Assembly (NCBI GenBank): GCA_024277375.1
Contig: JAJRVD010000025.1
Coordinates: 19,846 to 83,845, forward strand
Reading direction: 5' to 3'
Source of the DNA: Candidatus Omnitrophota bacterium
Lineage (GTDB): Bacteria; Omnitrophota; Gorgyraeia; Tantalellales; Tantalellaceae
Length of the DNA: 64,000 nt
The notes beneath the pieces were generated by a model that did not search any database, had not been told where the DNA came from, and saw only the letters and a program-made list of their open reading frames with translations. Of the stretch, positions 15,068-55,405 are shown piece by piece (the first letter of the stretch is position 1; each line of letters opens with the position of its first letter). A program made the position numbers and the translations under genes.

Positions 15068-15075
15068 GGTCTCAC

Positions 15076-31812: not shown

Positions 31813-31825
31813 AAGCTCTATTCTC

Positions 31826-31983
31826 TGTCATTCTGGCTGTGTCGTAATGTAAGGACTTGATTCATCAAGCCCGTTATGTCGGGTTCGCTAAGCTTGTCCC
31901 CGCGAAAGCGGGGATCGAACCCGATATAACATATTGTATACGGCCATTCGAAAAACAAATTGCGACACAGTCTGATCGCGAGG
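31826..31983 (+). repeat. MITE-like element, family A, copy 6, with a GC hairpin (TCCCCGCGAAAGCGGGGA) inserted in the core
   Basis: Arms conserved; the core centre is replaced or interrupted by a 21-bp GNRA-type hairpin; lies between lpxK and waaA. Confidence 0.75.
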
Positions 31984-31985
31984 GT

Positions 31986-33290
31986 TTATAAATACTCTTC
32001 AACTTTCTCTATCGTAACACTTACCGCTCCGGTATTTTCCTCTATAACTTTCCGCGCGCCTTCCGCCGCGCGGTCACGTTTTTCTGGATCATTCAAAAGT
32101 TCCTCTGTTAGATCCTTAAGGTGCCTTTTATCCTTTACCCGGAAGGCTGCGTTATGCTCCAGGAATATATCGGATACTTCGCGAAAATTAAACATATGCG
32201 GACCGAAAACAACTGCCTTACCCCATCTTGCCGCTTCAATCGGGTTCTGTCCTCCCTTTTTCACAAGACTTCCGCCAATAAAAACCACGGTAGCTATACC
32301 ATAAATATCCTTGAGATGACCTATCGTGTCGACGAGCAAAACATCGTAACCTGTGTCTTCAGCACTGCCTGATAAACAGCGACACTTTAGCCCCTCTTTT
32401 TCAACATGGATCTTTATGGCTTCGGCTCTCTCAATATGCCGTGGAGCTAAAACAAGTTTCAAATTCTTCCTGTCAGCTTTGAGGTCCTTATAGATGTCGA
32501 TGATCTCGTTCTCTTCGGGACAATGGGTGCTACCCGCGACAACGATCTCATCATTGGCATTAAAGCCCCACCGTTCCCTACCTGGTACCGCGTCGAAAGG
32601 AACGGGATCTTTTTCGTCAAATTTCATATTGCCGGTAACAAAAACTTTTTCTGACGAAGCGCCTAATTCCTGTATTCTTTCAGCATCCCGATCGGACTGC
32701 ATACAAAAACAACTAATACCCTTGAGAATACGCCTGGTTACAAACCTTATCTTCTTGTAATTCTCAAAGGACCCATCTGATATGCGACCATTAGCAATAA
32801 CAACCGGAACATCCTTCGAATACAATTCTTCCAGGAGATTAGGCCAGAGCTCCGTTTCTACCATCACATACAAACGAGGTTTCAAGAGACGTACCACACG
32901 AGCGGTTACCATCCTCATGTCTATCGGATAGTAAAATACGGCATCGACATTGCCGTTGGCAAGTTTTCGTATCATATTATTCCCGGTCTGTGTAGTTGTC
33001 GACACTATAACCGGAGTGTCTTTAAACTTACATTTGATGTCCGCGGCCAATTTTGCCGCCAAGGCCGCCTCCCCCACGCTCACCGCGTGTATCCAAACAG
33101 GATTGGAGAGTATCGTAACCTCTCTGGGCAAAAATCCAAGCTTTTGAAAAAAATCCCGGTGGGCTTTTCGCTTTACCAGAAGATACGGAATGTAAAAAAT
33201 GCTGAAAATTATAAAAAACAGATCGTATATTAATCTCATAGTAGCCTTGTCGGCGAATAGTCGTTGGTAAATAGTATTGGACCGGCTCAA
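31986..33290 (-). CDS. waaA: 3-deoxy-D-manno-octulosonic acid transferase (Kdo transferase)
   Basis: 434 aa; WaaA/KdtA family; N-terminal membrane anchor; alternative start at MRLIYDLFF (33239). Confidence 0.88.
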   Translation of the reverse strand: MSRSNTIYQRLFADKATMRLIYDLFFIIFSIFYIPYLLVKRKAHRDFFQKLGFLPREVTILSNPVWIHAVSVGEAALAAKLAADIKCKFKDTPVIVSTTTQTGNNMIRKLANGNVDAVFYYPIDMRMVTARVVRLLKPRLYVMVETELWPNLLEELYSKDVPVVIANGRISDGSFENYKKIRFVTRRILKGISCFCMQSDRDAERIQELGASSEKVFVTGNMKFDEKDPVPFDAVPGRERWGFNANDEIVVAGSTHCPEENEIIDIYKDLKADRKNLKLVLAPRHIERAEAIKIHVEKEGLKCRCLSGSAEDTGYDVLLVDTIGHLKDIYGIATVVFIGGSLVKKGGQNPIEAARWGKAVVFGPHMFNFREVSDIFLEHNAAFRVKDKRHLKDLTEELLNDPEKRDRAAEGARKVIEENTGAVSVTIEKVEEYL

Positions 33291-33317
33291 GACTATTCAC
33301 CATAAACCATTCACGCG

Positions 33318-34193
33318 CTACGCGCGTGGATGTGCTTTCGAGTATATCTCTTTTATACGTTTTGAACCGAGATGCGTATATATTTGTGTTGTCGATAAAT
33401 TTTTATGACCTAAAAGCTCCTGCACACTCCTGAGATCCGCGCCATTATTGAGCATATGGGTCGCGAATGAATGCCTGAGCGAATGCGGTGATATTTTTTG
33501 TTCTATCCCGCATTTAGTTATATATTTGTCAATAACTCGCCTTATGCTCCGATCAGTAAGGCGCGTGCCCCTCGCGTTAAGAAAAAGAGCTTTTACGGAA
33601 TCCTGCCCCTCGAGGCTTCTTTCTTTCAGATAATTCCGTAACGCGCTCCCGGCTTCCGATCCCAACAAGGTAAGCCGCTCTTTTTTTCCCTTACCTTTAA
33701 CTTTTGCCACTCCCGAGAGAAGATCCACATCCTGCTGATCTAGCTGAACCAATTCACTAACACGCATCCCCGTTGAATACAATATCTCCAGGATAGCCCT
33801 ATCTCGCAATCCAAGGATATTATCCGACAATGGCGAGGTTATAAACTTAAGCATCTTTTCGGTATCCAAAAATTCCGGCAAACGCCTATCCAGCTTTGGA
33901 GTAAAAATGCTATCCGCCGGATTTTGTGTTAAATATTTTTCCCTAAAAAGAAATCTAAAAAAAGAGCGTATCGCTCCCAGCTTTCTTACAACCGTACGTT
34001 TGGCGCAATTTCTCCCTTTAAGCTCCGCTAGGAAACGCCTGAGATCAAGGTGAGTTGTTTTTCTAGGATCTTTATCGTCCAAAAAATCAGCAAGCTCATT
34101 AAGGTCTGTCTTATAACACCGTAATGTATGCGCTGAATAGTTCTTCTCTATATCCAGATAAGAAACGAACTTCACAACGAAACGTTTCATCAT
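33318..34193 (-). CDS. tyrosine site-specific recombinase XerC/XerD
   Basis: 291 aa; phage-integrase catalytic domain with R...HxxR...Y (HSLRHSFATHML ... LGHKNLSTTQIYTH). Confidence 0.85.
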   Translation of the reverse strand: MMKRFVVKFVSYLDIEKNYSAHTLRCYKTDLNELADFLDDKDPRKTTHLDLRRFLAELKGRNCAKRTVVRKLGAIRSFFRFLFREKYLTQNPADSIFTPKLDRRLPEFLDTEKMLKFITSPLSDNILGLRDRAILEILYSTGMRVSELVQLDQQDVDLLSGVAKVKGKGKKERLTLLGSEAGSALRNYLKERSLEGQDSVKALFLNARGTRLTDRSIRRVIDKYITKCGIEQKISPHSLRHSFATHMLNNGADLRSVQELLGHKNLSTTQIYTHLGSKRIKEIYSKAHPRA

Positions 34194-36346
34194 TATTCAC
34201 CCTTCACGCCGCCATCACCATCTCCATTCTCTTTCTCGTCGGCAGCCGGAAGTGTTTTGGTAATAAACGTACATTTCGGATACTTCGTGCATCCATAGAA
34301 TGCGCCCCTTCGGGATCTTCGTTCTATAAGCTCACCATCACAGTCTTCGGTAGGACATTTAACTCCACTCGTTATCGATTTTGAGAACTTGCATTCAGGG
34401 AACGTTGAACAACTCATAAAACGTCCACGACGACCCCATTTTATCACAAGGGGCTTCCCGCACTCGTCACAAAACTCATCAGTCTCAATATCTTTGTGTT
34501 TGACCTTTTTTATGTTTTCTTGCGCCGCTTTAAGCATTTCCGAAAAGGGCCCATAAAAATCTCTCAATACGGCAACCTTGTCAATTTTCCCGTCTTCAAC
34601 ATCATCCAACTCATCCTCCATACCGGCCGTAAACGCGTCATCAACAATTTTCGGAAAATGCTCTACAAGTAATTTGTTTACCAACTCACCCAGTTCTGTC
34701 GGCTGCAAACTTTTCCCCAAACGCTTAACATAATTACGACGAATTATCGTTCTTATCGTAGGGGCGTATGTTGACGGTCTTCCTATCCCTTTTTCCTCAA
34801 GAATTTTAACGAGAGAAGCGTCCGTATAGCGTGGAGGCGGCTTAGTAAAATGCTGCCCCGGGATCAATTCCTCAAGATCGGTTTCTTCCAAAACTTCCAA
34901 CGGCGGCATCTCCGCCATATCCTCGCCTCTTTCTCCGTCATCAATATAAACACGAAGAAAACCGTCAAATTTGAGCTGCGCGCCACCGGCTTTAAACCTG
35001 TAGTCCCCCGCGTCAATACTGACGCTCAAAACAGAATAAAGCGCGTTTGTCATCTGGCTCGAAACAAATCTCTTCCATATAAGTTTGTAAAGCTTGATCT
35101 CGTCGTCATTAAGAAAAGGGGCGACATCGTCCGGATGACGAATGGGCAGTGTCGGCCTTATAGCTTCATGAGCTTCCTGGGCTCTCTTTTTTGATTTGTA
35201 TACCGGCGGCTTTTCCGGGCAATATTTGTCCCCGTACTTGTCCTTGATATACTGACGAACTTCCACTTGCGCGTCCTGAGAAATACGAACTGAATCTGTA
35301 CGCATGTATGTTATTAAACCTACGCTCCCCTCAGAACCCAGTTCAACCCCTTCATAAAGACTTTGCGCTATTCTCATGGAATTTGAAGCCGAAAAATTCA
35401 GTTTATTGAAAGCGTCCTGCTGCATAACAGAAGTGGTATATGGTGAACGCGGATAACTCTTTTTCTCTTTGCGGCTCACACTGCTCACTATAAATTTTTC
35501 TTTTTCTATCTCTTCGACTATTTTATTTACACTTTCCTCGTTTTGAATATGTATTTTTTCACCCTTGTGTTTTGCCAGCTTAGCTTCAAATGTAAGAGGC
35601 CCGTTATAACCCTCGGGGGGTGCTATTTTTTTCTTAAGACGCGCGACTAAACTCCAGTACTCCTCTTTTACGAAATTTTTTATATCCTCTTCCCTGTCTA
35701 CTATCAACCGAACAGCTATAGACTGCACTCTTCCGGCACTTAAGCCCCGTGTCACGTTTTTCCATAAAATGGGACTCAGTGAATACCCCACAATCCTGTC
35801 CATGATCCTTCTGGCCTGCTGGGCATTCACTTTCTCCATATCTAAAGTACGCGGATTTTCGAAAGCCTTTTTAACCGCTTTCGCCGTGATCTCATCGAAA
35901 CTTACTCTGTAAATTTCCGGATTTTTAGAATCGAGTTCATTTTTTAAATGCCAGCAAATAGCTTCCCCTTCTCTATCCGGGTCAGCCGCGAGGTATATTG
36001 CCTTTACAACTTTAGCTTCTTTCACCAGGCTGGTAAGATACTTTTTTCGCCCCTTCATAACCAGATATTCAGGCTCAAAATCCTTTTCAAAATCTATACC
36101 CATTCGGCCGGCGGGCAAGTCTATAATATGCCCCATGCTCGCGAGAACTTTGTATTCCCTACCCAGGATCTTATTTATAGTTTTTGATTTCGCCGGTGAT
36201 TCTACAATAACCAGATAGCCTGACCTTTTCTTTGGACTAGCCTTTCTCTTCGAAACGGCCTTTTTCTTAGCAGTGGTCTTTTTTACAGCTGGTTTTGCGG
36301 ATTTCTTTTTTGTATCCGATGTGGTTCCCTCTTTCTTAGTCGGCAT
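34193..36346 (-). CDS. topA: DNA topoisomerase I
   Basis: 717 aa; Lys-rich N-terminal tail; Toprim and topoisomerase IA core; C-terminal C4 zinc ribbons (CxxC pairs). Confidence 0.95.
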   Translation of the reverse strand: MPTKKEGTTSDTKKKSAKPAVKKTTAKKKAVSKRKASPKKRSGYLVIVESPAKSKTINKILGREYKVLASMGHIIDLPAGRMGIDFEKDFEPEYLVMKGRKKYLTSLVKEAKVVKAIYLAADPDREGEAICWHLKNELDSKNPEIYRVSFDEITAKAVKKAFENPRTLDMEKVNAQQARRIMDRIVGYSLSPILWKNVTRGLSAGRVQSIAVRLIVDREEDIKNFVKEEYWSLVARLKKKIAPPEGYNGPLTFEAKLAKHKGEKIHIQNEESVNKIVEEIEKEKFIVSSVSRKEKKSYPRSPYTTSVMQQDAFNKLNFSASNSMRIAQSLYEGVELGSEGSVGLITYMRTDSVRISQDAQVEVRQYIKDKYGDKYCPEKPPVYKSKKRAQEAHEAIRPTLPIRHPDDVAPFLNDDEIKLYKLIWKRFVSSQMTNALYSVLSVSIDAGDYRFKAGGAQLKFDGFLRVYIDDGERGEDMAEMPPLEVLEETDLEELIPGQHFTKPPPRYTDASLVKILEEKGIGRPSTYAPTIRTIIRRNYVKRLGKSLQPTELGELVNKLLVEHFPKIVDDAFTAGMEDELDDVEDGKIDKVAVLRDFYGPFSEMLKAAQENIKKVKHKDIETDEFCDECGKPLVIKWGRRGRFMSCSTFPECKFSKSITSGVKCPTEDCDGELIERRSRRGAFYGCTKYPKCTFITKTLPAADEKENGDGDGGVKGE

Positions 36347-37475
36347 TAAACACTCCCTTATTTGATCGTAAGTCCTTGCGAACGAAATTCTTACCTGCTT
36401 GTGCTTTCACTAACCCCTTTATTTCAAGTTTCATTAATATCTCCGATAACTTTCTGGGGTCAGTACTCGAACTTGCCGAAAGCTGGTCTATATGCAGTGG
36501 AACTTGTTCTTCCAGCATGCCCAGGACACCTCTTTCCTCTTCCCCAAGTCCATACATAACTAAAGATTCTTCCTTTGTTTTTACATCAATGTTTTGCGGT
36601 GCGGATATTTCAAATTCTTCCAGAATATCACCAACATGTAACACCAGTTTGGCACCGTTCTGTATAAGACGATTAGTACCCCTACTTGTAAGTGAATCCG
36701 CCCTTCCGGGAAAAGCAAAAACCTCCCTACCCTGGTCAAGCGCGAAATCAGCTGTTATCAAAGCGCCGCTTCTTTCGGCAGCCTCAACAACTACTACGCC
36801 CCTGGCCATGCCTGAAATTATCCTATTCCTTCTGGGGAAAGACGATTTACTCGGCATAGTATCGGAAGAATACTCAGTAATAACCGCGCCGTTGTAAGCT
36901 ATCGTCGAGACAAGTTTTTCGGATCCTTTGGGATAAATATGTCTGAACCCGCTTCCCATAACGGCAATTGTGCGCCCTCCCGCTTTTATTGCCCCTTTAT
37001 GCGCGGCCTGATCTATGCCTTTGGCCATACCGCTGATAACGGTTACACCCTTTTTAGCAAGATCAAATGCCAACCTTTCCGCCATCTTAAGCCCATACAA
37101 AGAACATCTTCGAGGCCCCACTATCGCCACTGCCTCAGCGTCGACCGGCCTCAGACTTCCCTTGCAAAAAAGCACGGGCGGCGGATCATAAATATTTTTT
37201 AAAGATTCCGGATAAGCTCTATCAAAACAACATATCGGATGGATGTCTTCCGAATCCATATAAGTCATTTCCTCCGCGTAAACTCGCGACTTTCTTACAT
37301 CCGACATCTGCTCTATCCCTCCGTAACGCAATCCTGTTAGCTCTGCCAGGCGAGCGGGAGCCAGCGAAAAGATCTCTTCGGTATTCTGAGTGTTTTTCAA
37401 TAACGTCATTATTCTTTTGGGACCAAGCCCTTCCAATAAATTCAAAGCCACTATATCCCGACATGTTTTATTCAT
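36336..37475 (-). CDS. dprA: DNA processing protein DprA (Smf)
   Basis: 379 aa; DprA Rossmann-like domain (GMAKGIDQAAH ... GALITA); canonical dprA-topA adjacency. Confidence 0.9.
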   Translation of the reverse strand: MNKTCRDIVALNLLEGLGPKRIMTLLKNTQNTEEIFSLAPARLAELTGLRYGGIEQMSDVRKSRVYAEEMTYMDSEDIHPICCFDRAYPESLKNIYDPPPVLFCKGSLRPVDAEAVAIVGPRRCSLYGLKMAERLAFDLAKKGVTVISGMAKGIDQAAHKGAIKAGGRTIAVMGSGFRHIYPKGSEKLVSTIAYNGAVITEYSSDTMPSKSSFPRRNRIISGMARGVVVVEAAERSGALITADFALDQGREVFAFPGRADSLTSRGTNRLIQNGAKLVLHVGDILEEFEISAPQNIDVKTKEESLVMYGLGEEERGVLGMLEEQVPLHIDQLSASSSTDPRKLSEILMKLEIKGLVKAQAGKNFVRKDLRSNKGVFNAD

Positions 37476-37530
37476 ACATCACCCACTCCTTCACTTTAAG
37501 CCACAGAGCGCTTTATGCCTTAACACCCCT

Positions 37531-37745
37531 GTCATTCAGACTGTGTCATAATGTAGGGGCTTGATCCATCAAGCCCGTTATATCGGGTTCGATGAATCGA
37601 ACCCCTACAATATACTGTATGCGGCCACCCGCAAAACGAATTACGACACAGCCTCATTGCAAGGCCTGCAAGATAGAAGCAATCTCTAGATGATATCCTT
37701 CGACTCGGCCTCGCATGTCTCGACTTCGCTCAGGATAAATTCGAA
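37531..37745 (+). repeat. MITE-like element, family A, copy 7 (composite with type-2 tail)
   Basis: Core plus arms at 37531-37665, then AGCAATCTCTAGATGATATCCTTCGACTCGGCCTCGC...CGCTCAGGATAA; lies between dprA and the aroK-HD-GYP gene. Confidence 0.85.
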
Positions 37746-37787
37746 ATACAATTTATGTTCGCTTCGCTCCATAAAATGTTTCTTCAT

Positions 37788-39302
37788 TTAAAAGACTCCT
37801 TTTCTGACCATATCAAGAAATATATCCGTAAGCCGGGGGTCAATTTTGTGACCTTTTTCATTTTCCATTATCGCTACCGCCTCATCGATAGAGAACTTTT
37901 CGCGATATGGCCTGTCTGCAGTTAACGCCTCATATATATCGGCTATGCTTAATATCCGCGCTTCCAGTGGGATCCGCCATCCCTTTCGTCCTTTAGGATA
38001 ACCCGAACCATCAAAATTTTCGTGGTGATTTACAATGATAGGTATGGTCTTACGCAGAAAATAGATCAGCCGTGCCATCTCGGCACCCCAGTAAGAATGC
38101 ATCTTCATCTGTCGAAACTCATTTTTTGTCAGCTGTTCTTTTTTGAACAAGATACTCTCTTCTACACCCAACTTCCCTATATCATGCAGAAGCGCTGCCA
38201 CTTTAAGCCTTTCTGTCTTCACTTTACTCAGTTTGATCTTTTTCGCCAGACTGGCGGCAAAGGTCTTAACCCTAGCAGAATGTTCAGCCACCCATGGCTC
38301 ACTTCTCATGCCGGCATCGAACAGTATACCCATCATTTCAAGATGCGCCGCATGCAGCTCTTTCGATGAAAGAGTATGACTTTTCGCGCTACTATCTACC
38401 GGATCCTCCTTTTCTCTTCCGACAAACATATAAAACACGGTTTTCTCTTCTTTTATGGGCACCACCAACCAGGAGATATATTTCCCGGAGACACCGGACG
38501 CGACAACAGGCATATCAAATTTAAAAAGCCTGTTTTTTCTTTTCATCTCTTTATTTATTTTCCACGCGTCGCCTCGCGCAGATTCGGGTATTATACCATT
38601 GATCCAGGACCGATTCATGATATCGTTTTCAAGAAGAGAGAACGCGGTTAAATATTTTTTGTTCACAAAAACAACCTGACCTTCGTTATCCACGAGCATT
38701 ACAGGGTATTTTATGTTCTGCAGCAATCTTTCAGAAAAATAACCCCAAAGAACGGTATTCTCTTCTAACCCCCGGCCTCTACCCTGTCGTCCTTCAAGGC
38801 GGTTACGCATAATATTCTTCACGCGATCTAAAACGATCGTAAGATCGAGTCCCGTAGTATCTATGTGATAGTTCGCTTTCTTGTAATATGGCCGACGATA
38901 TTCCAGAAGTTCTCTTATCATTTTCCGAGGATCATCAACTTCAAGAAGCGGCCTATGCGCATATTCTTTCGTTCTATCGTATATGGCGTCAACATCAGCC
39001 CATAGACATATAACAACACCAGTCCTACGAAGATCCTTCATATTTTGCCGATTCAAAACTACTCCACCGCCGGTGTCGATCACCTGATCCAATTTTGCCG
39101 AAACCTCTTTTACAACTTCTCGCTCGACCGTTCTGAAATATTCTTCACCTTCATCTCTGAAAATATCAGAAATAAGTTTGTCCTCCCGTATCTCTATGAG
39201 ATTGTCTACACTGACGTATTCCTTGCCCGTATCGTGAGCAAGCGCTTTGGCGATCTCGGTTTTCCCGGATCCCATAAAGCCTACAAGTACAATATTTTTC
39301 AT
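37788..39302 (-). CDS. shikimate kinase fused to PAS-like sensor and HD-GYP phosphodiesterase domain
   Basis: 504 aa; residues 1-175 are a complete AroK (GFMGSGKT Walker A, conserved shikimate-binding pattern); middle ~150 aa are PAS-like; the C-terminus carries HDIGK ... HHENFDGSGYP (HD-GYP signature). Confidence 0.75.
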   Translation of the reverse strand: MKNIVLVGFMGSGKTEIAKALAHDTGKEYVSVDNLIEIREDKLISDIFRDEGEEYFRTVEREVVKEVSAKLDQVIDTGGGVVLNRQNMKDLRRTGVVICLWADVDAIYDRTKEYAHRPLLEVDDPRKMIRELLEYRRPYYKKANYHIDTTGLDLTIVLDRVKNIMRNRLEGRQGRGRGLEENTVLWGYFSERLLQNIKYPVMLVDNEGQVVFVNKKYLTAFSLLENDIMNRSWINGIIPESARGDAWKINKEMKRKNRLFKFDMPVVASGVSGKYISWLVVPIKEEKTVFYMFVGREKEDPVDSSAKSHTLSSKELHAAHLEMMGILFDAGMRSEPWVAEHSARVKTFAASLAKKIKLSKVKTERLKVAALLHDIGKLGVEESILFKKEQLTKNEFRQMKMHSYWGAEMARLIYFLRKTIPIIVNHHENFDGSGYPKGRKGWRIPLEARILSIADIYEALTADRPYREKFSIDEAVAIMENEKGHKIDPRLTDIFLDMVRKGVF

Positions 39303-39331
39303 ATGCTCCCTTTTACATACTTTTTAGGCTT

Positions 39332-39504
39332 GTGCAAAACGCTGTTTTTTTTCAATCAGCCTGTGTCATGATGTAGGGGCTTGATTCATCAAGCCCGTTA
39401 TATCGGGTTCGATGAATCGAACCCCTACAATATGTTGTATGCGGCCATCCGCAAAACAAATTACGGTACAGCCTGAATGACGAGAATTCCATTTTGCACA
39501 AGTC
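39332..39504 (+). repeat. MITE-like element, family A, copy 8 (flanked by the 15-bp direct repeat TTACATACTTTTTAG)
   Basis: Inverted ends CTTGTGCAAAACG / CATTTTGCACAAG; identical 15-bp direct repeats at 39313-39327 and 39505-39519; lies between the aroK-HD-GYP gene and aroC. Confidence 0.88.
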
Positions 39505-40632
39505 TTACATACTTTTTAGTTGCTCCAAATATCCCTCGTAATTCCGGCGGATCTCTTTCATGGAGTCTCCGCCAAACTTCTCTAAAAATACGGCGCCAAT
39601 TTCTATAGCCACAGCCGCTTCGGCGATAACACCGCAAGCCGGAACCGCGGTTACATCAGAACGCTCCGTAGCGGCTTCCGCTTCCTTCTTCGTATCGATA
39701 TCAACAGTTTTTAACGGACTTGCCAAAGTCGCTATGGGCTTCATAAAAGCCTTTACTACAACCGGAGCTCCATTCGTAACTCCGCCCTCTATTCCTCCGG
39801 CATTGTTAGATTCTCGCGTGAACATTCTCCCCAAACTATCATATCCTATCGGATCATGCGTGAGCGAGCCCTTTCGCTACGCGCATTCTATTCCCTTTCC
39901 TATCGAAACCGCCTTTACCGCGGGTATTGCCATAACGGCACGTGCTATCCGACCATCCAACCTTCTGTCCCACTGCGCGTATGTCCCCAATCCCGGAGGG
40001 ATTTCAAGTACCGCGATCTCGATGGTACCACCCAAAGTATCACCGCAAATTTTCGCGTTATCAATGATCTTACGCATACTTTTCGCGGCATTCTTGTCCG
40101 CGCATCTAAGATCTGAAACTTCAGCGATCTTTTTTATTTCATCAAAGAAAAGTCCGTCGGTTTCCGCCTCGACGTTTCCTATCGCGGTAACATGGCTCAT
40201 TACATCAATACCAAATTCTTTAAATATCAATTTCGCGACAGCACCAACAGCGACTTTTATCGCTGTCTCTCGTGCCGAGGCTCTCTCCAGAACATCCCGG
40301 GCGTCTCCAAGAGCATATTTCTGCACACCGGCCAGATCGGCATGTCCGGGACGAGGACATTTTACATCAGGAAGTTTATCGATCTTATGATCCTTATTGC
40401 GTATCAAAAGCCCCACAGGACTGCCTATAGTAAACCCGCCTCGAATGCCGGTCACTACTTCGACCTTATCCCTCTCGATCTTCATCCGGCCGCCTCTACC
40501 ATACCCTACCATACGCCGGGTGAGCTCTTTGTTGATGAATTCTTCATCCATTTTGAGACCCGCGGGCACGCCGTCCAAAACCGCCATTAATCCCTTGCCG
40601 TGGGATTCTCCCGCAGTCATATACCTTAGCAT
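39505..40632 (-). pseudogene. aroC: chorismate synthase (aroC) interrupted by a single in-frame TAG at 39877-39879
   Basis: ORFs 39877..40632 and 39505..39834 share a frame. Read-through gives ...SIGKGIECA-TAG-RKGSLTHDPIGYDSLGRMFTRESNNAGGIEGG, collinear with the AroC consensus (GxGFxxAxxxGSxxxDxI...RSNxAGGIxGG). Total 376 codons. Confidence 0.8.
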
Positions 40633-40717
40633 GGCAAACTCCTTTTTTTCGTATTCCGGATATCGTCAAATCAATGGGGATCAGACCTGCCCCAAAGTCT
40701 TTGCCACCTCTTCTCTG

Positions 40718-40790
40718 TCATCGTGTCGTGTAGGGGTTCGATTCATCGAACCCAATATAACGGGCTTGATAAATCAAGCCCCTACATTAT
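40718..40790 (-). repeat. MITE-like element, family A, copy 9 (minimal core-only copy, reverse orientation)
   Basis: GTAGGGGTTCGATTCATCGAACCCAATATAACGGGCTTGATAAATCAAGCCCCTAC with short arms; lies between aroC and pilD. Confidence 0.75.
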
Positions 40791-40828
40791 GACGAAGCTA
40801 TCACTATAAACACCACTCTCCTACGTAA

Positions 40829-41593
40829 CTAAATTAAAAAATAACCTAAGATCGCATCGCCGTACAATAAACTTATTATCGCCCCTAACGCCAGATAGGG
40901 GCCGTACGCGATAACGTCTTCCCTATGCTTAAGCTTCGCGAAAATACCTACACCGGAACCCATAACCGGCGCGAGAAAAAAAGTAAGAAGTATTAATTTC
41001 CATCCGAGGAACGCTCCAAGCATGGCCATCAGTTTCATATCTCCACCGCCTAATGCCTCTTTTTTGAACAAAACTTCCCCTAAAAGAGCCAGGAGAAACA
41101 TACTGCCGAATCCGGTTACCACCCCCAGTGCGGAATTAATAAACGCCCCCAGCGTTGTCGCGGAACCGTCTAATCTCAACACCGTCATAAGAATAAGCCC
41201 GACGGCTATCCCCTGCAGGCTCAAACAATCGGGTATTTCCTGAAATTCCAGATCAATGAACACAATAACTATCAGCACACATGTTAATGTCCAATAGACA
41301 AAAAACGCGCTGCCCAACGGGTAATAGCGCAAAATGAGCATCGCGCTTAAAGCAGTTACCAGCTCAACCACAAAATACCTTTTAGATATCTTTTCCCCAC
41401 AATGACGGCACCTGCCCCTGAGCGATAAAAAACTTATAAACGGCACATTATCGAACCATCCGATAGTCTTCCGGCATTTCGGACAATAAGAACGAGGTCC
41501 GACTATAGACTCATTCCTCGGTATGCGGTAAATACATACGTTAAGAAAACTCCCTATGATAGCTCCAAAAATAAAAACGATCAAATATTCCAT
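40829..41593 (-). CDS. pilD: type IV prepilin peptidase (A24 family)
   Basis: 254 aa; N-terminal CxxC zinc-finger pairs (CPKC ... CRHC) and the A24 aspartyl peptidase membrane domain. Confidence 0.85.
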   Translation of the reverse strand: MEYLIVFIFGAIIGSFLNVCIYRIPRNESIVGPRSYCPKCRKTIGWFDNVPFISFLSLRGRCRHCGEKISKRYFVVELVTALSAMLILRYYPLGSAFFVYWTLTCVLIVIVFIDLEFQEIPDCLSLQGIAVGLILMTVLRLDGSATTLGAFINSALGVVTGFGSMFLLALLGEVLFKKEALGGGDMKLMAMLGAFLGWKLILLTFFLAPVMGSGVGIFAKLKHREDVIAYGPYLALGAIISLLYGDAILGYFLI

Positions 41594-41610
41594 AGTTTAG
41601 TGCTCCATGT

Positions 41611-41640
41611 TCCGTAGGAGCGGCCTCCGGCCGCGAACAA
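41611..41640 (+). repeat. type-4 repeat copy
   Basis: CCGTAGGAGCGGCCTCCGGCCGCGAACAA upstream of pilD. Confidence 0.7.
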
Positions 41641-41684
41641 CACGTCGTACATCGCATAGCGTACATCATACAGCGTGTTCTCCT

Positions 41685-41885
41685 GTCATTCAGACTGTAT
41701 CATAATGTAGGGGCTTGATTTATCAAGCCCGTTATATCGGGTTCGATGAATCGAACCCCTACAATATGTTGTATGCGACCATCCGTAAAACGAATTACGA
41801 CACATCCTTAACCGAGGACATCGTTCCCGAGTAAGTCCCGGGACCAGAGGTTCTCGGGAAAGGGCCGAGTCAAAGGATCTCTTAT
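41685..41885 (+). repeat. MITE-like element, family A, copy 10 (composite with type-2 tail)
   Basis: Core plus arms at 41685-41806, then a tail ending GGGCCGAGTCAAAGGATCTC; lies between pilD and aroE. Confidence 0.82.
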
Positions 41886-42784
41886 TTGTCTCTCTTCAAC
41901 TCCGCCAAAACCGCTTCTTTCATAACTTTTTTCGTCTCTTCAAGAGGCTTCCCCGTCCATATATTAAAAGCAATGGCCGCCTGGTTGATCAGCATACCCA
42001 ATCCATTAACCGCTGTGAGCCCTTGTTCTTTCGCGGTTTTTAGAAGCCTCGTTTCCCGGGCATAGACAAGATCATATACTGTCATCCCCTCTCTTAAACA
42101 CTCAAGAGGAACAGCCGAACGATCATCCCCCTCTTTCGTTCCGATCGGGGTCGCGTTTACAACAAGTTCGCATTAGGCCATTCTTCCGGAAATATCTTTT
42201 GCCTCAACAGGGACGCACGCGTCCGGCCCAAACTGCTTCTTGCAAACAGTTGCCAATTGACAAAGTAGATCCTCTTGCGAATCATAAAGAAATATTTCTT
42301 CAGGTGCCGCCTCACCGATAGAAGCAAGATACATGCACAGAGCTCGCCCCGCCCCGCCGGATCCAAACAGAAAAACCTTTTTACCTTTGGGGTCAAATCC
42401 CGCGTCTTCTTGCAATGATTGATAAAACCCTTCCACGTCAGTATTATACCCCTTAACCTTTTCACCATCACTCCTGACGGTATTGACAGCACCCAGCAAT
42501 TCCGCTTCGCTATCTATAGTACACTTCTGTCCGGATTTCAGCATATCAAACACGGCTATCTTATAAGGTACCGTAACATTAATACCACCAATATTGTTGT
42601 CCTTGATAAGACTCAAGAAATCCTTATCTATATGTTTTGCTCTGGTGTCAAAATCTCTATCGAAAAGTTTATATTCGGTTGGTATGCCAAAATGGGCAAG
42701 CGCCGCATTATGCATGACGGGAGACAAAGAATAGCTTATATTCTTCCCAAGAAGACCGTATACTTTAGCGTTGACGTTCGACAT
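41882..42784 (-). pseudogene. aroE: shikimate dehydrogenase (aroE) interrupted by a single in-frame TAA at 42173-42175
   Basis: ORFs 42173..42784 (N-terminal substrate domain; Rossmann GSGGAGRA) and 41882..42085 are in the same frame. Read-through gives ...DISGRMA-TAA-CELVVNATPIGTKEG...MTVYDLVY..., matching the AroE consensus DLVVNATxxGM. Confidence 0.8.
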
Positions 42785-42834
42785 AGAATGCTCTCCTCTG
42801 ATCTGTCATTGCGAACGAACTAGCGTGAGCGGAA

Positions 42835-43030
42835 CAATCTCTGCAAAAATAATGTTTTATGGGGATTGCCGCGTCATCATTCGCTTTGCAAATGAACTCC
42901 TCGCATTCAGGCTGTGTCACAAGTCACTTTATGAAAGCTACATACAACATATTGCAGGGATTCATTTATCAAACCCGATATAACGGGCTTGATAAATCAA
43001 GCCCCTACATTGCGACACAGCATGAATGAC
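42835..43030 (-). repeat. MITE-like element, family A, copy 11 (degenerate, reverse orientation)
   Basis: One core half is retained (GATATAACGGGCTTGATAAATCAAGCCCCTAC); the other half is degenerate; the arms carry the CAAGTCACTTT...ACATACAACAT subfamily sequence; lies between aroE and leuA. Confidence 0.65.
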
Positions 43031-43037
43031 AATACAT

Positions 43038-44588
43038 CTATTTCTTGCTTGTTTTCTTTTTCGCCTTAGTGGCTTTCGCCGAAAGGCGATTAACGGCATT
43101 TATGTATGCTCTAACACTTGCCTCTATAACATCGGTACTGGAACCTCTGCCCATTACGATCTTTTTGCCGAAAGACACCTTCACGCTGGCTTCTCCAAGC
43201 GCGTCTTTGCCGCTGGTAACAGCGTTTATTCTGTAATCTACAAGTTTGCCCTTTTGGCCGATAGCTTTATCGATGGTCTTGAAACAAGCGTCAACGGGAC
43301 CATCACCCGTCGCGGTGGCTGAAAGTAGTTTTTTGTTTTTTTTAAGATCTACAGTGGCTAAAGGATCTACCTTATTACAACTAGTCACCTGAAAATTAAC
43401 AAGTTTATACTCTTCGGTAACCGTAGCGAGGTCATCTTCCACGATAGTAGCGAGATCTTCATCGTATATTTCAGCTTTTTTGTCAGCAAGGGTCTTGAAT
43501 CGCGCGAAGGCCTGGTCGAGTTCTTTATCAGAAAGAAAATATCCGAGTTTTTTCAACCGGGCTGATACCGCGTGACGTCCTGAAAGTTTTCCGAGGACTA
43601 TCTTTGAGCCCGAAAACCCGACATCCTGAGGCCTTATGATCTCATATGTAACGCGTTTTTTCATCACACCGTCTTGGTGTATCCCGGATTCATGGCTGAA
43701 AGCGTTCTCGCCGACGATAGCTTTGTTGGGCTGGGGGTTTATCCCGGTTAACTTGGCGACCAATTTACTTGTCTTATATAATTCTTTCGTAATGATCCCG
43801 GTCGTTATTCCCTTGAATATATCCTTACGCATCTTGACGGCCATAATAACTTCTTCAAGAGCGGCGTTACCCGCTCTTTCTCCCAGGCCGTTAATGGTAC
43901 ACTCTATCTGACGCGCGCCGTTCAAAACCGCTTCTAAAGAATTGCTTACCCCAAGCCCCAGGTCATTATGACAATGTACGCTTATTACCGCCTTACCGAT
44001 ATTGCTCACATTTTCATTGAGATATCGTATAAGGCTCCCAAATTCGCCGGGCACGGCATAACCTACGGTATCCGGAATATTGACCGTCCGCGCTCCGGCG
44101 GCGATAACCGCCTCCACGACTTCCGCGAGAAAATCGGGTTCCGTTCGCGACGCGTCCTCGGGGGAGAATTCAATATCCGAAATTTTCTTACGGGCATATT
44201 TTACCGCGTCCACTGAAGCCTTAAGTATCTCGTCTTTAGCTTTATTAAGCTTATATTTTCGATGTATACTCGAAGTTGCCAGAAAAACATGTATCCTGGC
44301 CCTTGCGGCTTTCTTAAGAGCCAGATAAGCGTCATCTATATCTCTTTTGGTCGCCCGGGCCAAACCACATATTATCGGTTTTTTGACGTGCTTTGAGACA
44401 GTCTTTACCGCGTCAAGATCTCCCGGACTGGTACGCGGAAACCCCGCTTCGATAACGTCAACACCCAGAGTTTCAAGCTGAAGCGCGATCTTTAATTTCT
44501 CATTCGCGTTCAGACTCGCTCCGGGTGTTTGTTCGCCATCCCTTAAAGTCGTATCAAAAATGATAACCTTGTCTTTCTTCATGATCAA
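43038..44588 (-). CDS. leuA: 2-isopropylmalate synthase
   Basis: 516 aa; HMGL-like TIM barrel (LRDGEQ) plus C-terminal LeuA dimerisation/regulatory domain. Confidence 0.95.
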   Translation of the reverse strand: MIMKKDKVIIFDTTLRDGEQTPGASLNANEKLKIALQLETLGVDVIEAGFPRTSPGDLDAVKTVSKHVKKPIICGLARATKRDIDDAYLALKKAARARIHVFLATSSIHRKYKLNKAKDEILKASVDAVKYARKKISDIEFSPEDASRTEPDFLAEVVEAVIAAGARTVNIPDTVGYAVPGEFGSLIRYLNENVSNIGKAVISVHCHNDLGLGVSNSLEAVLNGARQIECTINGLGERAGNAALEEVIMAVKMRKDIFKGITTGIITKELYKTSKLVAKLTGINPQPNKAIVGENAFSHESGIHQDGVMKKRVTYEIIRPQDVGFSGSKIVLGKLSGRHAVSARLKKLGYFLSDKELDQAFARFKTLADKKAEIYDEDLATIVEDDLATVTEEYKLVNFQVTSCNKVDPLATVDLKKNKKLLSATATGDGPVDACFKTIDKAIGQKGKLVDYRINAVTSGKDALGEASVKVSFGKKIVMGRGSSTDVIEASVRAYINAVNRLSAKATKAKKKTSKK

Positions 44589-44649
44589 TCCTTTTTAACG
44601 TACATCTCATAGAGTACATCGCACAGCGTGTTTCTACCATCTACCCTGT

Positions 44650-44815
44650 TGTCTCAAGTCACTTTGCAAAGAACAACATACAACATAACATACAACATAC
44701 TGTAGGAGTTTGATTTATCGAACCCGATATATCGGGCTCGATAAATCAAGCCCCTACATTGCAACACAGACTGATCGCGAGGAGCACAGCAACGAATCAA
44801 TCTCTACGATATGTG
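44650..44815 (-). repeat. MITE-like element, family A, copy 12 (subfamily variant, reverse orientation)
   Basis: Core variant GTAGGAGTTTGATTTATCGAACCCGATATATCGGGCTCGATAAATCAAGCCCCTAC; shares the CAAGTCACTTT / ACATACAACAT arm with copy 11; right extension GAGCACAGCAACGAATCAATCTCTACGATA; lies between leuA and ilvC. Confidence 0.75.
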
Positions 44816-44857
44816 TACCCCGAAAAATCGGAAATAAGTCCAGCTATAACTGACAAC

Positions 44858-45847
44858 TTAGTCCATCCAAGGCATCATACCGCGCAGCTCTTCGCCGACT
44901 ATCTCTATCTGATGTTTCTTTTCCTCTGATGTTATCTTATTATAATTCGGACGCCCCGCTTCATTCTCTTTGATCCATTCCTCAGCAAATTTACCGGACT
45001 GCACTTCACCAAGGATCTTTTTCATCTCATCACGTGTTGCCTGATTGATGACCCTTTTACCTCTTGTGATGTCGCCATATTCGGCCGTATCCGAAACCCT
45101 GGATCTCATACCTGAGATACCATTTCTATAAATGAGGTCTGTTATGAGCTTTAACTCATGCAGACACTCAAAATACGCGATCTCCGGCTGATATCCAGCT
45201 TCAACCAAAGTATCAAAACCGGCTTTTATAAGTTCCGAAGCACCCCCGCAAAGTACTGCCTGTTCCCCGAAAAGGTCCGTTTCGGTTTCCTCGGTAAAAG
45301 TTGTCTCAATAACACCGGCTTTTGTTCCGCCGATCGCCTTGGCATAAGCCAGAGCCTTGTCCTTCGCTTTACCGCTGGCATCCTGATAGATCGCGATAAG
45401 AGCCGGAACACCTTTACCCTGTTCGTACATCTCTCTTACCAAAGCACCGGGCCCTTTAGGAGCGACCATTATAACATCCACATTTTCAGGCGGCACGATC
45501 TGCTTGAAATGTATGTTGAACCCGTGCGAAAAGGTAAGCGTATTACCTTCGAGGAGATTAGCCTCGATAGCGTTCTTATAAACCGAAGCCTGAACATGGT
45601 CCTGGGTCAATATCTGGATTATATCGGCCTGCTTTGCCGCCTCGGAAGCTGAAATAACATCAAAACCATCTTTCTTTGCCTGTTCATAGTTAGGGGTGCC
45701 TTCCAGTTCACTGACCAGAACATCAATACCACTGTCTCTCAGGTTAAGCGCCTGCCCACGGCCCTGTATACCGTAGCCGATTATCGCTACCTTTGAATCC
45801 TTGATCACATCAAGCTCCGCGTCTTTATCATAGTACATCTTCGCCAT
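44858..45847 (-). CDS. ilvC: ketol-acid reductoisomerase
   Basis: 329 aa; class I KARI ([17 protein letters not shown]). Confidence 0.95.
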
Positions 45848-45903
45848 CTCACTTCCTCCTTTTTACTAGCGCTCATGCTTCATGCACAATACACTTTTTC
45901 CCC

Positions 45904-45985
45904 GTCCATTCAGACTGTATCATAATGTAGGGGCTTGATTCATCAAGCCCGTTATATCGGGTTCGATAAATCGAACCCCTACATT
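45904..45985 (+). repeat. MITE-like element, family A, copy 13 (right arm truncated)
   Basis: Left arm plus full core; ends 3 nt before the ilvH TAG stop; lies between ilvC and ilvH. Confidence 0.8.
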
Positions 45986-45988
45986 ACG

Positions 45989-46474
45989 CTATTCACTATC
46001 CGACCGCAAAGCTATCTTTCCGGTCCTCACGATCTCCAAAATTCCATAGGGACGTACCAGCTCCACAAGAGCTTTTATCACATGGTCATCCCCTGACTCT
46101 TCAACAGTAAGAGACTTCTTACCGACATCCACTATCTCCGCACCGGTAGTGTCAACAACTTTTACGATCTTTTCCCTGACCTTAGTATCCGGCGCCTTGA
46201 CCTTTATCAGTATAAGCTCTCGCCCGATATGCTCTCCCTCGGTAAGGTCCTGCACGCTAATGACATCTATAAGTTTATTAAGCTGTTTCTTTACCTGTTC
46301 CAATATCTTCTCATCCGCCGCCACGACTATTGTCATCCTTGATGTATCAGGATCTTCCGTTTCACCTACCGCTAACGACGTAATGTTAAACCCCCGTGCG
46401 GAAAAAAGTCCGGCAACCCTCGCCAAAACACCAAACTTATTTTCTACTAAAACTGATAGTACAAATTTAGACAT
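45989..46474 (-). CDS. ilvH: acetolactate synthase small (regulatory) subunit
   Basis: 161 aa; ACT domain plus C-terminal ALS_ss_C; TAG stop abuts a truncated MITE. Confidence 0.9.
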   Translation of the reverse strand: MSKFVLSVLVENKFGVLARVAGLFSARGFNITSLAVGETEDPDTSRMTIVVAADEKILEQVKKQLNKLIDVISVQDLTEGEHIGRELILIKVKAPDTKVREKIVKVVDTTGAEIVDVGKKSLTVEESGDDHVIKALVELVRPYGILEIVRTGKIALRSDSE

Positions 46475-46502
46475 TATTACTCCTTAGCTTTCAGTCTTAG
46501 AC

Positions 46503-46675
46503 TCATGCAAAACGCTGTTTTTTCAATCAGACCGTATCATAATGTAGGGGCTTGATTCATCAAGCCCGTTATATCGGGTTCGATAAATCGAACCCCTACA
46601 ATATCTTGTATGCGGCCATCCGCATAACAAATTACAACACAGGCCGAATGACGAAAGTTCCGTTTTGCAAAACCC
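46503..46675 (+). repeat. MITE-like element, family A, copy 14 (full length)
   Basis: Outer ends ATGCAAAACGCTG / CCGTTTTGCAAAA; flanking CAGTCTT / AGCTTTCAG direct-repeat motifs on both sides; lies between ilvH and ilvB. Confidence 0.88.
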
Positions 46676-46738
46676 TATTCAGTCTTCAGCTTTCAGCCTT
46701 CAGCTGCTGATAGCTGAAAACTGATAGCTGATAGCTCA

Positions 46739-48433
46739 CTACGCCAATCCGTGTAACATCTCGCTTATCGACTTACCTGCCGGTACCATCGGGAACACGT
46801 TCTCTTCCCTTTCTATGACGAAATCCAGTATAACCGGCCCTTTAGCCTTCAATGCTTCCTTAATTGACTTTTTTACATCTTCTTTTTTCTCGATCCTTAT
46901 ACCCTTGGCGCCGAAACTTTCAGCTAACTTCACAAAGTCCGGACATACGGTACCTTTTTCCCCGCCCACAACTGTCCAGGCATAACGCTTATCATAAAAT
47001 AGTTCCTGCCATTGACGTACCATACCAAGATAACCGTTGTTAAGTATCACAATAATGACAGGTATCTTCTCAAGAACCGCGACCGCCATCTCCTGGATGT
47101 TCATCTGAATACTACCGTCACCGGCAATATCAAAAACAATTGCTTCAGGTTTTCCTATCTTAGCGCCTATCGCCGCAGGAAAACCGTAACCCATAGTACC
47201 CAATCCACCACTCGACACTAACGTCCGTGGTTTTGTATACGTATAATGCTGTGCGGCCCACATCTGATTTTGACCAACTTCGGTGGCTATGATAACCTCT
47301 TTATCTTTGGTCATGTCATGTATCGTCTCGATAATGTACTGCGGCCTCAACTTGTCGTCATCCTTATATTTGAGCGGCAACTCTTTTTTCCACTCAGAGA
47401 TCATTTTGTGCCACTCTTCACGTTCTTTTTTTGTTATCATGGTGTTAAGTTCTTTGAGTATTGCCTTAGCGTCCCCGATAACCGGGATATCAACCTGCAC
47501 ATTCTTACTTATACTCGAAGGATCCACGTCAATATGCGCGACTTTAGCATTTGGCGCAAATTCATCTATCCGCCCTGTAACCCTGTCATCAAACCTGGCA
47601 CCGATCGCTATAATAAGATCCGAAGACTGTATGGCATGATTCGCGTACGCCGTTCCATGCATACCCAGCATACCAAGACTTAATGGATCATCTTCAGGAA
47701 AAGCGCCCAACCCCATCAACGTAGTCGTAACAGGTATATCCGTTTTACGCGCCAGACGTGTAAGCTCTTTATCCGCACCCGAAAGAATTATTACGCCGCC
47801 GGCATATATGATCGGGCGTTTACTTTTCTCGATAGCTTTGGCTATCTTTTTTATCTGACCGGAATGCCCCGTACAAGTCGGGTTATAACCTTTAAGCTTC
47901 CGCAAAGACGGTTCTTTGAATTCGGTCGTATTAACCTGAACGTCAACAGGTAAGTCTATCAGCACAGGACCGGGCCTCCCGGTTCTAGCTATATGAAAAG
48001 CTTCTTTTACCACTTGCGCGAGATCTTTTACATCCTTAACCAGATAGTTATGTTTTGTAATAGGACGTGTTATCCCGACCATATCAACTTCCTGAAAAGC
48101 GTCATTGCCTATGAGGCTTGAATTTACCTGTCCGGTAATGGCGACAAGAGGGATCGAATCCAAATGTGCCGTCGCGATACCTGTAACCAGATTAGTCGCG
48201 CCGGGTCCTGAAGTAGCTATACATACCCCGACCTCACCCGTAGCGCGCGCGTACCCGTCAGCGGCATGAATAGCTCCCTGTTCATGTCGGGTCAGATGGA
48301 ACTTTATCTCCTCCACACTGTAAAGTTTGTCCGCTAAAGGGATTATAACTCCACCAGGATAACCGAAAATATGTTTAACCTTCTCTTCCAACAACATCTT
48401 GATCAAGATCTCAGCACCGGTAATTTTAGTCAT
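46739..48433 (-). CDS. ilvB: acetolactate synthase large subunit
   Basis: ThDP-dependent enzyme (GDGSIQMNIQE). Start at MTKITGAEIL (ATG 48431-48433); the ORF-track extension to 48511 covers a type-4 repeat. Confidence 0.92.
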   Translation of the reverse strand: MTKITGAEILIKMLLEEKVKHIFGYPGGVIIPLADKLYSVEEIKFHLTRHEQGAIHAADGYARATGEVGVCIATSGPGATNLVTGIATAHLDSIPLVAITGQVNSSLIGNDAFQEVDMVGITRPITKHNYLVKDVKDLAQVVKEAFHIARTGRPGPVLIDLPVDVQVNTTEFKEPSLRKLKGYNPTCTGHSGQIKKIAKAIEKSKRPIIYAGGVIILSGADKELTRLARKTDIPVTTTLMGLGAFPEDDPLSLGMLGMHGTAYANHAIQSSDLIIAIGARFDDRVTGRIDEFAPNAKVAHIDVDPSSISKNVQVDIPVIGDAKAILKELNTMITKKEREEWHKMISEWKKELPLKYKDDDKLRPQYIIETIHDMTKDKEVIIATEVGQNQMWAAQHYTYTKPRTLVSSGGLGTMGYGFPAAIGAKIGKPEAIVFDIAGDGSIQMNIQEMAVAVLEKIPVIIVILNNGYLGMVRQWQELFYDKRYAWTVVGGEKGTVCPDFVKLAESFGAKGIRIEKKEDVKKSIKEALKAKGPVILDFVIEREENVFPMVPAGKSISEMLHGLA

Positions 48434-48465
48434 ATAACTCCTCTCTGCACTATGTGTACCCGATT

Positions 48466-48511
48466 CCGTAGGAGCGGTATCACAGCACCTTCGGTGATGG
48501 GCCGCGAACAA
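48466..48511 (+). repeat. type-4 repeat copy
   Basis: CCGTAGGAGCGGTATCACAGCACCTTCGGTGATGGGCCGCGAACAA in the ilvB leader. Confidence 0.7.
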
Positions 48512-48673: not shown

Positions 48674-48701
48674 GTAGGGGCACGGCATGCCGTGCCCCTA
48701 C
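48674..48701. repeat. REP-like palindrome type 3a
   Basis: GTAGGGGCACGGCATGCCGTGCCCCTAC, a perfect palindrome immediately left of MITE copy 15. Confidence 0.8.
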
Positions 48702-48709
48702 AAATAATT

Positions 48710-48928
48710 TGTCATTCAGGCTGTGTCGTAATGTAGGGGCTTGATTCATCAAGCCCGTTATATCGGGTTCGATAAATCGAACCCCTACAATATATTGTAT
48801 GCGGCCATCCGCAAAACGAATTGCGACACGGCCTGATTGCGAGGAGGAGCGGAACAACGACGAGGCCGAGGAACAACGTTTCCGAGGTCATCCTGAGACC
48901 AGAGAGTCTCAGGGCGGCAATCTCTAAA
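48710..48928 (+). repeat. MITE-like element, family A, copy 15 (composite with type-2 tail)
   Basis: Core plus arms at 48710-48850, then GTCATCCTGAGACCAGAGAGTCTCAGGGCGGCAATCTC; lies between ilvB and the giant ORF. Confidence 0.85.
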
Positions 48929-55290: not shown

Positions 55291-55405
55291 ACTGTGTCGT
55301 AACGTAGGGGCTTGATTTATCAAGCCCGTTTATATCGGGTTCGATGAATCGAACCCTTACAACATATTGTATGCGGCCATCCACAAAACGAATTACGACA
55401 CAGCC
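55291..55405 (+). repeat. MITE-like element, family A, copy 16
   Basis: Arms ACTGTGTCGTAACGTAGGGG / ATTACGACACAGCC; core with minor substitutions; lies between the giant-ORF upstream region and alr. Confidence 0.82.

Follow-up and report, generated by a model that had tools for sequence, protein, structure and literature searches.

Family A, a probable miniature transposable element with a GTAG palindrome-pair core, occupies the intergenic spacers of an Omnitrophota housekeeping gene run

The stretch of DNA analysed here (the window) comprises 64,000 nucleotides of contig JAJRVD010000025.1 from a Candidatus Omnitrophota bacterium (assembly GCA_024277375.1). It carries a run of housekeeping genes, almost all on the minus strand, that includes serA, clpP, tig, hpf, lptB, queF, trx and lipopolysaccharide genes and continues with dprA, aroK, aroC, pilD, aroE, leuA, ilvC, ilvN and ilvB. 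Between these genes lies a dispersed repeat, family A, of which repeat finding, BLAST and profile searches recovered 16 copies (c1–c16) in the 64-kb window, every one intergenic. Full-length ('long') copies measure 166–182 bp and are non-coding: no open frame crosses the whole element, each element contains at least one stop, and no Rfam match reached the gathering threshold anywhere in the window. A full copy is predicted to fold into a single rod-like hairpin, both as RNA (−82 kcal/mol, z = −10) and as DNA (−40.8 kcal/mol, z = −7.3). Each copy contains a 56-nt core that is nearly invariant, GTAG-GGGCTTGAT-tc-ATCAAGCCC-gttatatc-GGGTTCGAT-ga-ATCGAACCC-CTAC, made up of two perfect 9-bp palindromes, one in each half, which carry their GTAG heads on the outer sides (head-to-head).

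An outer terminal inverted repeat (TIR) is present in five of the 16 copies only: c1 (7593–7758, plus strand, 166 bp), c2 (9589–9754, plus, 166 bp), c5 (21174–21353, minus, 180 bp), c8 (39325–39506, plus, 182 bp) and c14 (46498–46677, plus, 180 bp). Its consensus, TAGRCTYNTGCAAAACG ... CRTTTTGCANNAYCCTT, is about 17 bp long and imperfect, with 11–14 of the 20 terminal positions complementary; between these ends and the core run long inner arms that are complementary to each other. With each terminus set 8 nt outside the conserved TGCAAAA/TTTTGCA cores, the element termini are conserved as TA on the left and TT on the right, position 2 being A in 9 of the 10 ends. In c8, which lies between the aroC stop and the Shine–Dalgarno (SD) sequence of an aroK–PAS–HD fusion gene, the left outer TIR TAGGCTTGTGCAAAACG (39325–39341, plus; 14/20 complementary to the right end) and the right outer TIR CATTTTGCACAAGTCTT (39490–39506, plus) bracket a core at 39373–39428. 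The inverted ends that the initial annotation had assigned to this copy, CTTGTGCAAAACG (39329–39341) and CATTTTGCACAAG (39491–39503), were confirmed and are complementary at 12 of 13 positions.

Direct repeats abut all five long copies. The exact 15-bp repeat previously read at c8, TTACATACTTTTTAG, is present at 39313–39327 and 39505–39519. Its extra TT and TAG are, however, conserved terminal bases of the element in other copies, so the repeat is most simply a 10-bp duplication, ACATACTTTT (39315–39324 and 39507–39516), plus five coincidental nucleotides; the right-hand repeat holds the aroC stop codon, on the minus strand. At c2, GTACAGCGTAT was again found on both sides (9578–9588 and 9755–9765; 11 bp, exact). 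The flanks noted for c1, (C)TAACATGTA(G) and (T)TAACGTGTA(C), are also present and match at 8 of the 10 abutting positions (TAACATGTAG at 7583–7592, TAACGTGTAC at 7759–7768); this duplication overlaps the CTAC tail of a neighbouring GTAG-headed palindrome of the repetitive extragenic palindromic (REP) kind, type B below. For c14, TTCAGTCT does abut both ends (46490–46497 and 46678–46685; 8 bp, exact), but the site is a tandem array of heptads, which makes the repeat ambiguous and this the weakest case. The fifth long copy, c5, which had not been cited before, has AATATGTAAT (in element sense) on both sides, at 21354–21363 and 21163–21172 (10 bp, exact, with a 1-nt offset). With family-wide termini the duplications thus measure 8–11 bp, modally 10, rather than the 11–15 bp first proposed, and they are not unusually long, as had been suggested, falling instead within the range of ordinary insertion sequence (IS) families. 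Duplications of the IS4 and ISAs1 families, for example, are roughly 8–13 bp; assignment of family A to any such family is only a lead. A likeness between the TIR and ISL3-type ends (GGCTCTTTGCAAAA-like) is not claimed here, as TA/TT, conserved outside the GG, is at odds with it.

Additional tandem copies resembling the duplication lie just beyond two of the elements. Next to c2 (9766–9793) the sequence reads ATGCGCTGTAT-gcc-ATACGCTGTAC in gene sense, and beyond c14 (46678–46736) there are CTGAARG heptads, with tandem-repeat (TRF) periods of 7 and 14. These could have been left by insertions and excisions in the past, or the targets may already have been repetitive.

Random anchor pairs spaced like the ends of an element (400,000 pairs) gave P ~9e-5 per copy for an abutting repeat of at least 8 nt without mismatch, and P ~6.5e-4 for a match of at least 8/10 at zero offset. 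When left and right flanks were exchanged between long copies (trans, as opposed to the cis flanks of one copy), no pair matched at more than 7 of 10 positions. The cis/trans comparison and the random anchors together show that the flanking repeats are real, copy-specific and not contained in a longer conserved element; the possibility that they are internal parts of such an element, present at every copy, was thereby excluded. That the repeats are due to chance, or belong to a longer conserved unit with nothing mobile about it, is accordingly an explanation to which we give almost no weight. It could draw on the tandem array at c14 and on the conserved termini behind the TT and TAG of c8, but the repeats differ at every copy, match only in cis, each have the low probability given above, and are found where syntenic relatives are entirely without elements.

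In the remaining 11 copies an inner inverted repeat (about CYCCTGTCATTCAGRCTGTGTCRTAAT) forms the ends, unless truncation or rearrangement has gone further; their arms are homologous to those of the long copies. Two have the inner TIR only and no duplication, c4 (14852–14999, plus) and c7 (37528–37669, plus). Short copies also lie at 41679–41822 (c10, plus), 42894–43034 (c11, minus, which keeps a degenerate trace, GAGTTCATTTGCAAAGCG, of its right outer end), 48707–48848 (c15, plus, 9 nt from a type-B REP) and 55280–55423 (c16, plus). The others are a core-only remnant (c9, 40722–40796, minus), a diverged short copy (c12, 44689–44781, minus), a left arm plus core (c13, 45905–45990, plus), a short copy without outer TIR (c3, 11740–11853, plus) and a rearranged short copy (c6, 31821–31986, plus). 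In c3 the left half of hairpin 1 is duplicated in tandem over 21 nt (11764–11803, perfect), and in c6 an extra GC hairpin (CCCCGCGAAAGCGGGG) has been added within the second palindrome (31875–31915), with the spacer orientation inverted; these changes indicate rearrangement within copies.

Exact repeats of at least 8 nt around the 11 short copies were limited to non-abutting 8-mers at the chance rate, and a test for degraded repeats gave no duplication signal at these copies (cis mean 5.6 versus trans 5.2). Systematic scoring of the 16 window copies therefore places TIR and duplication together in five and neither in 11, with duplications confined to copies that have the outer TIR, the pattern expected if a transposase acts on those ends. 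The transposition with target-site duplication that the initial annotation had proposed for family A as a whole is upheld for the five TIR-bearing copies and does not extend to the other 11.

Removal of a long copy together with one copy of its repeat restored an ordinary junction (stop or REP, SD, start). In the reconstructed c8 site the aroC frame ends ...LKSM-TAA, followed by AAGGGAG and then by the aroK ATG. In the c1 site, the neighbouring REP palindrome regains its CTAC tail from the downstream copy of the repeat. The distance from a long copy to the start codon downstream of it is 22–27 nt in all five cases, with 1–6 nt between the end of the duplication and the SD.

We compared these junctions with three contigs from Omnitrophota relatives (L003, L004 and L005), in which the gene order from ilvB to lpxK is perfectly syntenic with the window (30769–48511: ilvB-ilvN-ilvC-leuA-aroE-pilD-aroC-aroK(PAS-HD fusion)-dprA-topA-xerC-kdtA-lpxK). 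The aroC–aroK spacer, 202 nt here, shrinks to 10 nt in the reconstruction; L003 and L004 have 10 and 17 nt. Of the nine junctions with an element that were compared, eight are longer here (141–579 nt) than in the relatives (−47 to 92 nt). At the ninth, kdtA–lpxK, the window has 173 nt and L003 has 42 nt, but L004, with an extra small ORF (open reading frame) there, has 309 nt. Three element-free junctions are short in all genomes compared. A profile search for family A found no copies in L003–L005, and these contigs have essentially no GTAG palindromes. Element-free orthologous junctions, of the kind with which the initial annotation had suggested a comparison, therefore exist, although only in distant relatives: the short junctions match the reconstructed empty sites in a cross-genus comparison at 43–49% amino-acid identity, not as base-for-base alleles. 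They agree with lineage-specific insertion. The shikimate kinase–PAS–HD fusion is itself unusual; it is 43–49% identical across these relatives.

Copy-specific abutting repeats, normal reconstructed sites and insertion-free relatives are the signature of TIR-dependent transposition with target-site duplication. [quoted passage not shown] As a MITE family with a REP-dimer core it is new, and it is a familiar kind of element. Small size (below about 400 bp), lack of coding capacity, TIRs, dispersed copies and a stable fold were all found, together with copy-specific abutting duplications at 5/5 TIR-bearing copies and at none of the 11 short ones; full-length family A falls within the operational definition of a bacterial MITE (PMC3184786).

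In the mechanism that we propose, a transposase encoded elsewhere in the genome, presumably a DDE enzyme acting in trans, would recognise the outer inverted repeats and insert the element by cutting the target with a stagger of about 10 bp (8–11 bp observed), and repair of these cuts would leave the copy-specific flanking direct repeats. The insertions that survive occupy the short spacer between a stop codon or REP hairpin and the next SD and leave the genes on both sides undamaged. Copies that lack outer TIR and duplication (11) may be decayed or truncated derivatives, or may have spread by a second route. The family extends beyond the window: a translation of the element used as a protein probe retrieved four spurious NCBI ORFs over further copies, one of which encodes the reverse complement of the outer right end, and because these lie on four other contigs, family A is genome-wide.

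Several observations weigh against this interpretation. No DDE or Y1 transposase was found when the approximately 55 ORFs of the window were scanned against Pfam, the sole recombinase being a housekeeping XerC/D-type gene beside topA and dprA that is kept in the relatives, and there is no autonomous partner with matching TIRs within the 64 kb. TIR and duplication occur together in fewer than a third of the copies (5/16), the TIRs are imperfect, the length of the duplication varies (8–11 bp), and that of c14 sits in a tandem array. The databases hold no near-identical empty allele, the closest non-self match to the aroK–PAS–HD protein having 49% identity; the matches carry the annotation Candidatus Omnitrophota. 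Finally, the repeats beside two minimal copies on metagenome contigs (see below) are not explained by a simple TIR and a 10-bp staggered cut.

That the core is a GTAG-headed, REP-like doublet, which the initial annotation did not mention, raises the possibility of a second system of mobilisation or maintenance. The core units are GTAG+GGGCTTGATnnATCAAGCCC and GTAG+GGGTTCGATnnATCGAACCC, and the 8-nt spacer between them, GTTATATC, is conserved in nearly all copies. Mean pairwise identity is 94% in the core versus 64–69% in the arms, and 97% versus 78–84% among long copies. Covariation is uninformative, as there is next to no variation in the core stems. The core and the single palindromes described below fit the published account of REPs tagged with GTAG and of their head-to-head dimers (REP doublets forming hairpins, or REPINs). 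These are recognised and cleaved at GTAG by REP-associated tyrosine transposases (RAYTs), which are Y1/HUH enzymes, and the dimers are sometimes embedded in longer palindromes; target duplications are not described for them (PMC3733652). We infer that core conservation reflects maintenance, the candidate agents being a RAYT-type enzyme, gene conversion and some role that the hairpins play for the host in polycistronic mRNA.

A possible, though clearly less likely, alternative is that family A is a REPIN, a GTAG doublet that a RAYT spreads and maintains by way of single-stranded DNA and without duplicating the target. In that case the five copies with outer TIRs would be a derived sub-lineage with acquired IS-type ends, or REPINs inside a separate MITE. 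The architecture speaks for it: the core reads GTAG, 9-bp palindrome ... 9-bp palindrome, CTAC, with the heads outside, which is a high-copy GTAG-headed palindrome in an inverted doublet with a conserved spacer. So do the greater conservation of core than arms, the two other GTAG palindrome types in the window, the 11 of 16 copies without duplication, and the documented precedent for GTAG REPs, for head-to-head dimers and their embedding, and for RAYT cleavage at GTAG (PMC3733652). Against it, five full-length copies have abutting, copy-specific duplications tied to outer repeats that are not REPs, whereas Y1-type transposition makes none; absence of a target-site duplication, as expected of a REPIN, is seen in the short copies and not in the full-length ones. 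The window has no RAYT gene. The arms, moreover, are homologous in long and short copies and c11 keeps its outer-end remnant, so the short copies may be decayed long ones. We favour the MITE reading, with the REP doublet as its core.

GTAG-headed palindromes are abundant in the window, with 42 matches versus about 6 in shuffled sequence. Beyond the core they include symmetric palindromes that stand singly and differ from it in sequence, in two types, GTAGGGGCACGGCRYGCCGTGCCCCTAC and GTAGGGGCGTATTGCAATACGYCCCTAC. Type B (GTAGGGGCACGGCATGCCGTGCCCCTAC) lies at 48674–48701, with others at 7765–7790, ~17510–17537 and 62891–62918, and type C (GTAGGGGCGTATTGCAATACGTCCCTAC) at 8939–8966, with others at 23533–23560 and 21367–21394. 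These single palindromes sit just downstream of genes. For the gene at 7787–8917, the TAG of a GTAG head provides the stop codon, and another palindrome starts 6 nt past the TAG stop of the gene at 17545–18516. Short repeat modules also adjoin family A. One, GAAGCMATCTCTASATRAKATCCTTCGAC plus the hairpin ACTTACGTCACTTCGTTCCGTAAGT, is found next to c3 (11845–11960), c4 (14985–15070) and c7 (37655–37740), and a GAGACCAGAGRKTCTC-type hairpin adjoins c10 (41800–41880) and c15 (48850–48920). Together they suggest mosaic intergenic regions, similar to bacterial interspersed mosaic elements (BIMEs).

Scans for the core, in exact and in degenerate form, gave no match in 185,579 species-representative genomes and none in viral contigs; in metagenome collections they matched two short contigs only, here called L001 and L002, among the records Ga0114923_10062054 and Ga0209976_10088432. 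Both copies are minimal, consisting of the core and one partial arm without outer TIR. On L001 the flanking direct repeat is 23–24 bp long. It gives a second copy of the ribosome-binding site and of the first codons of the downstream gene, a putative tsaE-like gene by its translated N-terminus; this repeat lies 17 nt from the contig end and could be an assembly artefact. On L002 it is 16 bp long, beside a hairpin that separates a glycosyltransferase-like ORF from the ORF upstream of it (putatively murG and ftsW, respectively, which they resemble), and it overlaps a hairpin motif of which there are three local occurrences. Should they be real, these repeats imply another mode of insertion, with long and variable duplications. 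IS1630 of Mycoplasma fermentans makes duplications of 19–26 bp at inverted repeats, and by analogy similar behaviour could lie behind the 16–24 bp repeats next to hairpins on the two contigs. In L001 (2433–2558) the 73-nt element and the 23-nt repeat add up to 96 nt (32 codons) that are stop-free in the frame of the downstream gene, so that translation begun at the duplicated start upstream could extend the protein in frame at its N-terminus, comparable to the in-frame palindromic elements of Rickettsia.

The metagenome repeats bear on whether a staggered cut is involved at all. Replication or repair events provoked by the hairpins (template switching or slippage), or an unusual integrase that leaves long and variable duplications, might instead have produced the repeats, which we regard as improbable. 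The lengths vary as such a process might have it (8–11 bp, 15 as read at c8, 16 in L002 and 23–24 in L001), the L001 and L002 repeats flank copies that lack the outer TIR, and extra duplication-like tandem copies stand beside c2 and, as heptads, beside c14. In the window, by contrast, repeats occur only with an outer TIR and abut a consistently defined terminus, and four of the five duplications fit 10–11 bp; the two metagenome repeats are open to the reservations given above, a possible assembly artefact in L001 and a locally threefold hairpin motif in L002. A combination of both systems is doubtful, if somewhat less so: a dual-mode element whose core is maintained by a RAYT-type enzyme, perhaps with duplication-free spread as well, and whose IS-ended sub-lineage is moved by a second transposase (~10 bp), or an enzyme acting on the GTAG doublet that itself makes duplications of 10–24 bp. 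Were the latter true, it would be a new insertion chemistry for REP-type elements. TIR-dependent transposition of a MITE remains our preferred account of the five long copies.

The closest analogue of family A in size, TIR length, duplication length and operon location is the Chunjie MITE of Geobacter (Geotalea) uraniireducens Rf4 (178–235 bp, TIR of ~21 bp, 9-bp direct repeats; Chen et al. 2008, as summarised in PMC3184786 and PMC10969869). Both are non-coding, have a very stable rod fold, insert inside operons while sparing the genes and leave many partial copies without TIR or direct repeat. They differ in the duplication (9 versus ~10 bp) and in the GTAG-REP doublet core and Omnitrophota host, which are those of family A. 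The two appear not to be homologous, in that the family A core is absent from the 185,579 species-representative genomes. The Nezha MITE of Anabaena/Nostoc (130–170 bp) likewise has TIRs, flanking direct repeats and a stable fold, and its mobility was inferred from filled versus empty orthologous sites; unlike family A so far, it has an identified IS partner with the same TIRs, ISNpu3, and empty sites in closely related species (Zhou et al. 2008, as summarised in PMC3184786).

With the GTAG REP dimers and REPINs (Nunvar 2010, PMC2817692; Di Nocera 2013, PMC3733652), family A shares inverted GTAG palindromes and a short conserved spacer. Its host, like the genomes that carry GTAG REPs, has several palindrome sequence types in intergenic positions within same-strand gene runs, and in both the TAG of a REP sometimes serves as a stop codon. 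The GTAG-15 dimers of A. variabilis, which lie within a long palindrome, resemble the family A core inside its complementary arms. Full-length family A is unlike REPs and REPINs in its non-REP outer inverted repeats and target duplications, and unlike standard MITEs in carrying a GTAG-REP doublet core. It is a clear natural case of such a doublet inside a classical TIR/target-site-duplication element, a combination that bears on how REPs, REPINs and MITEs relate to one another and are mobilised.

For an uncultivated, small-genome Omnitrophota lineage, 16 copies per 64 kb is a very dense load of miniature mobile DNA, and family A fills most spacers of a conserved housekeeping gene run that relatives keep compact. 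The elements widen operon spacers and, according to the modelled fold, would place a rod of about −80 kcal/mol in polycistronic transcripts just upstream of ribosome-binding sites. They also cause spurious ORF calls in the annotation of metagenome-assembled genomes (MAGs). A role as promoter was rejected, as consensus scans found 21 matches versus 21.6 expected, and so was a role as terminator, since what is called as terminator-like within elements is just the REP hairpins, which have no real T-tract. One conserved motif that resembles a sigma-70 site (TTGATR, 16 nt, TATGAT; 9–10/12) does face the downstream gene, in gene sense on the minus strand, at 41699–41726, 45919–45946 and 46536–46563; with no overall enrichment versus shuffles, it is only a lead.

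Elsewhere in the window, neither a 1610-aa ORF on the minus strand (49012–53844) nor a 247-aa ORF (53959–54702) has a Pfam domain, at E ≤ 1e-5 for the former. A single in-frame stop splits each of tig (10346–10348, TAG), aroC (39877–39879, TAG) and aroE (42173–42175, a codon other than TAG), and after each stop the conserved protein sequence continues in the same frame; relatives have an intact aroC of 377 aa and aroE of 297 aa. Reassignment of TAG was rejected as the cause, as TAG ends 12 ordinary genes. The three stops are therefore nonsense mutations, readthrough sites or errors in the MAG consensus.

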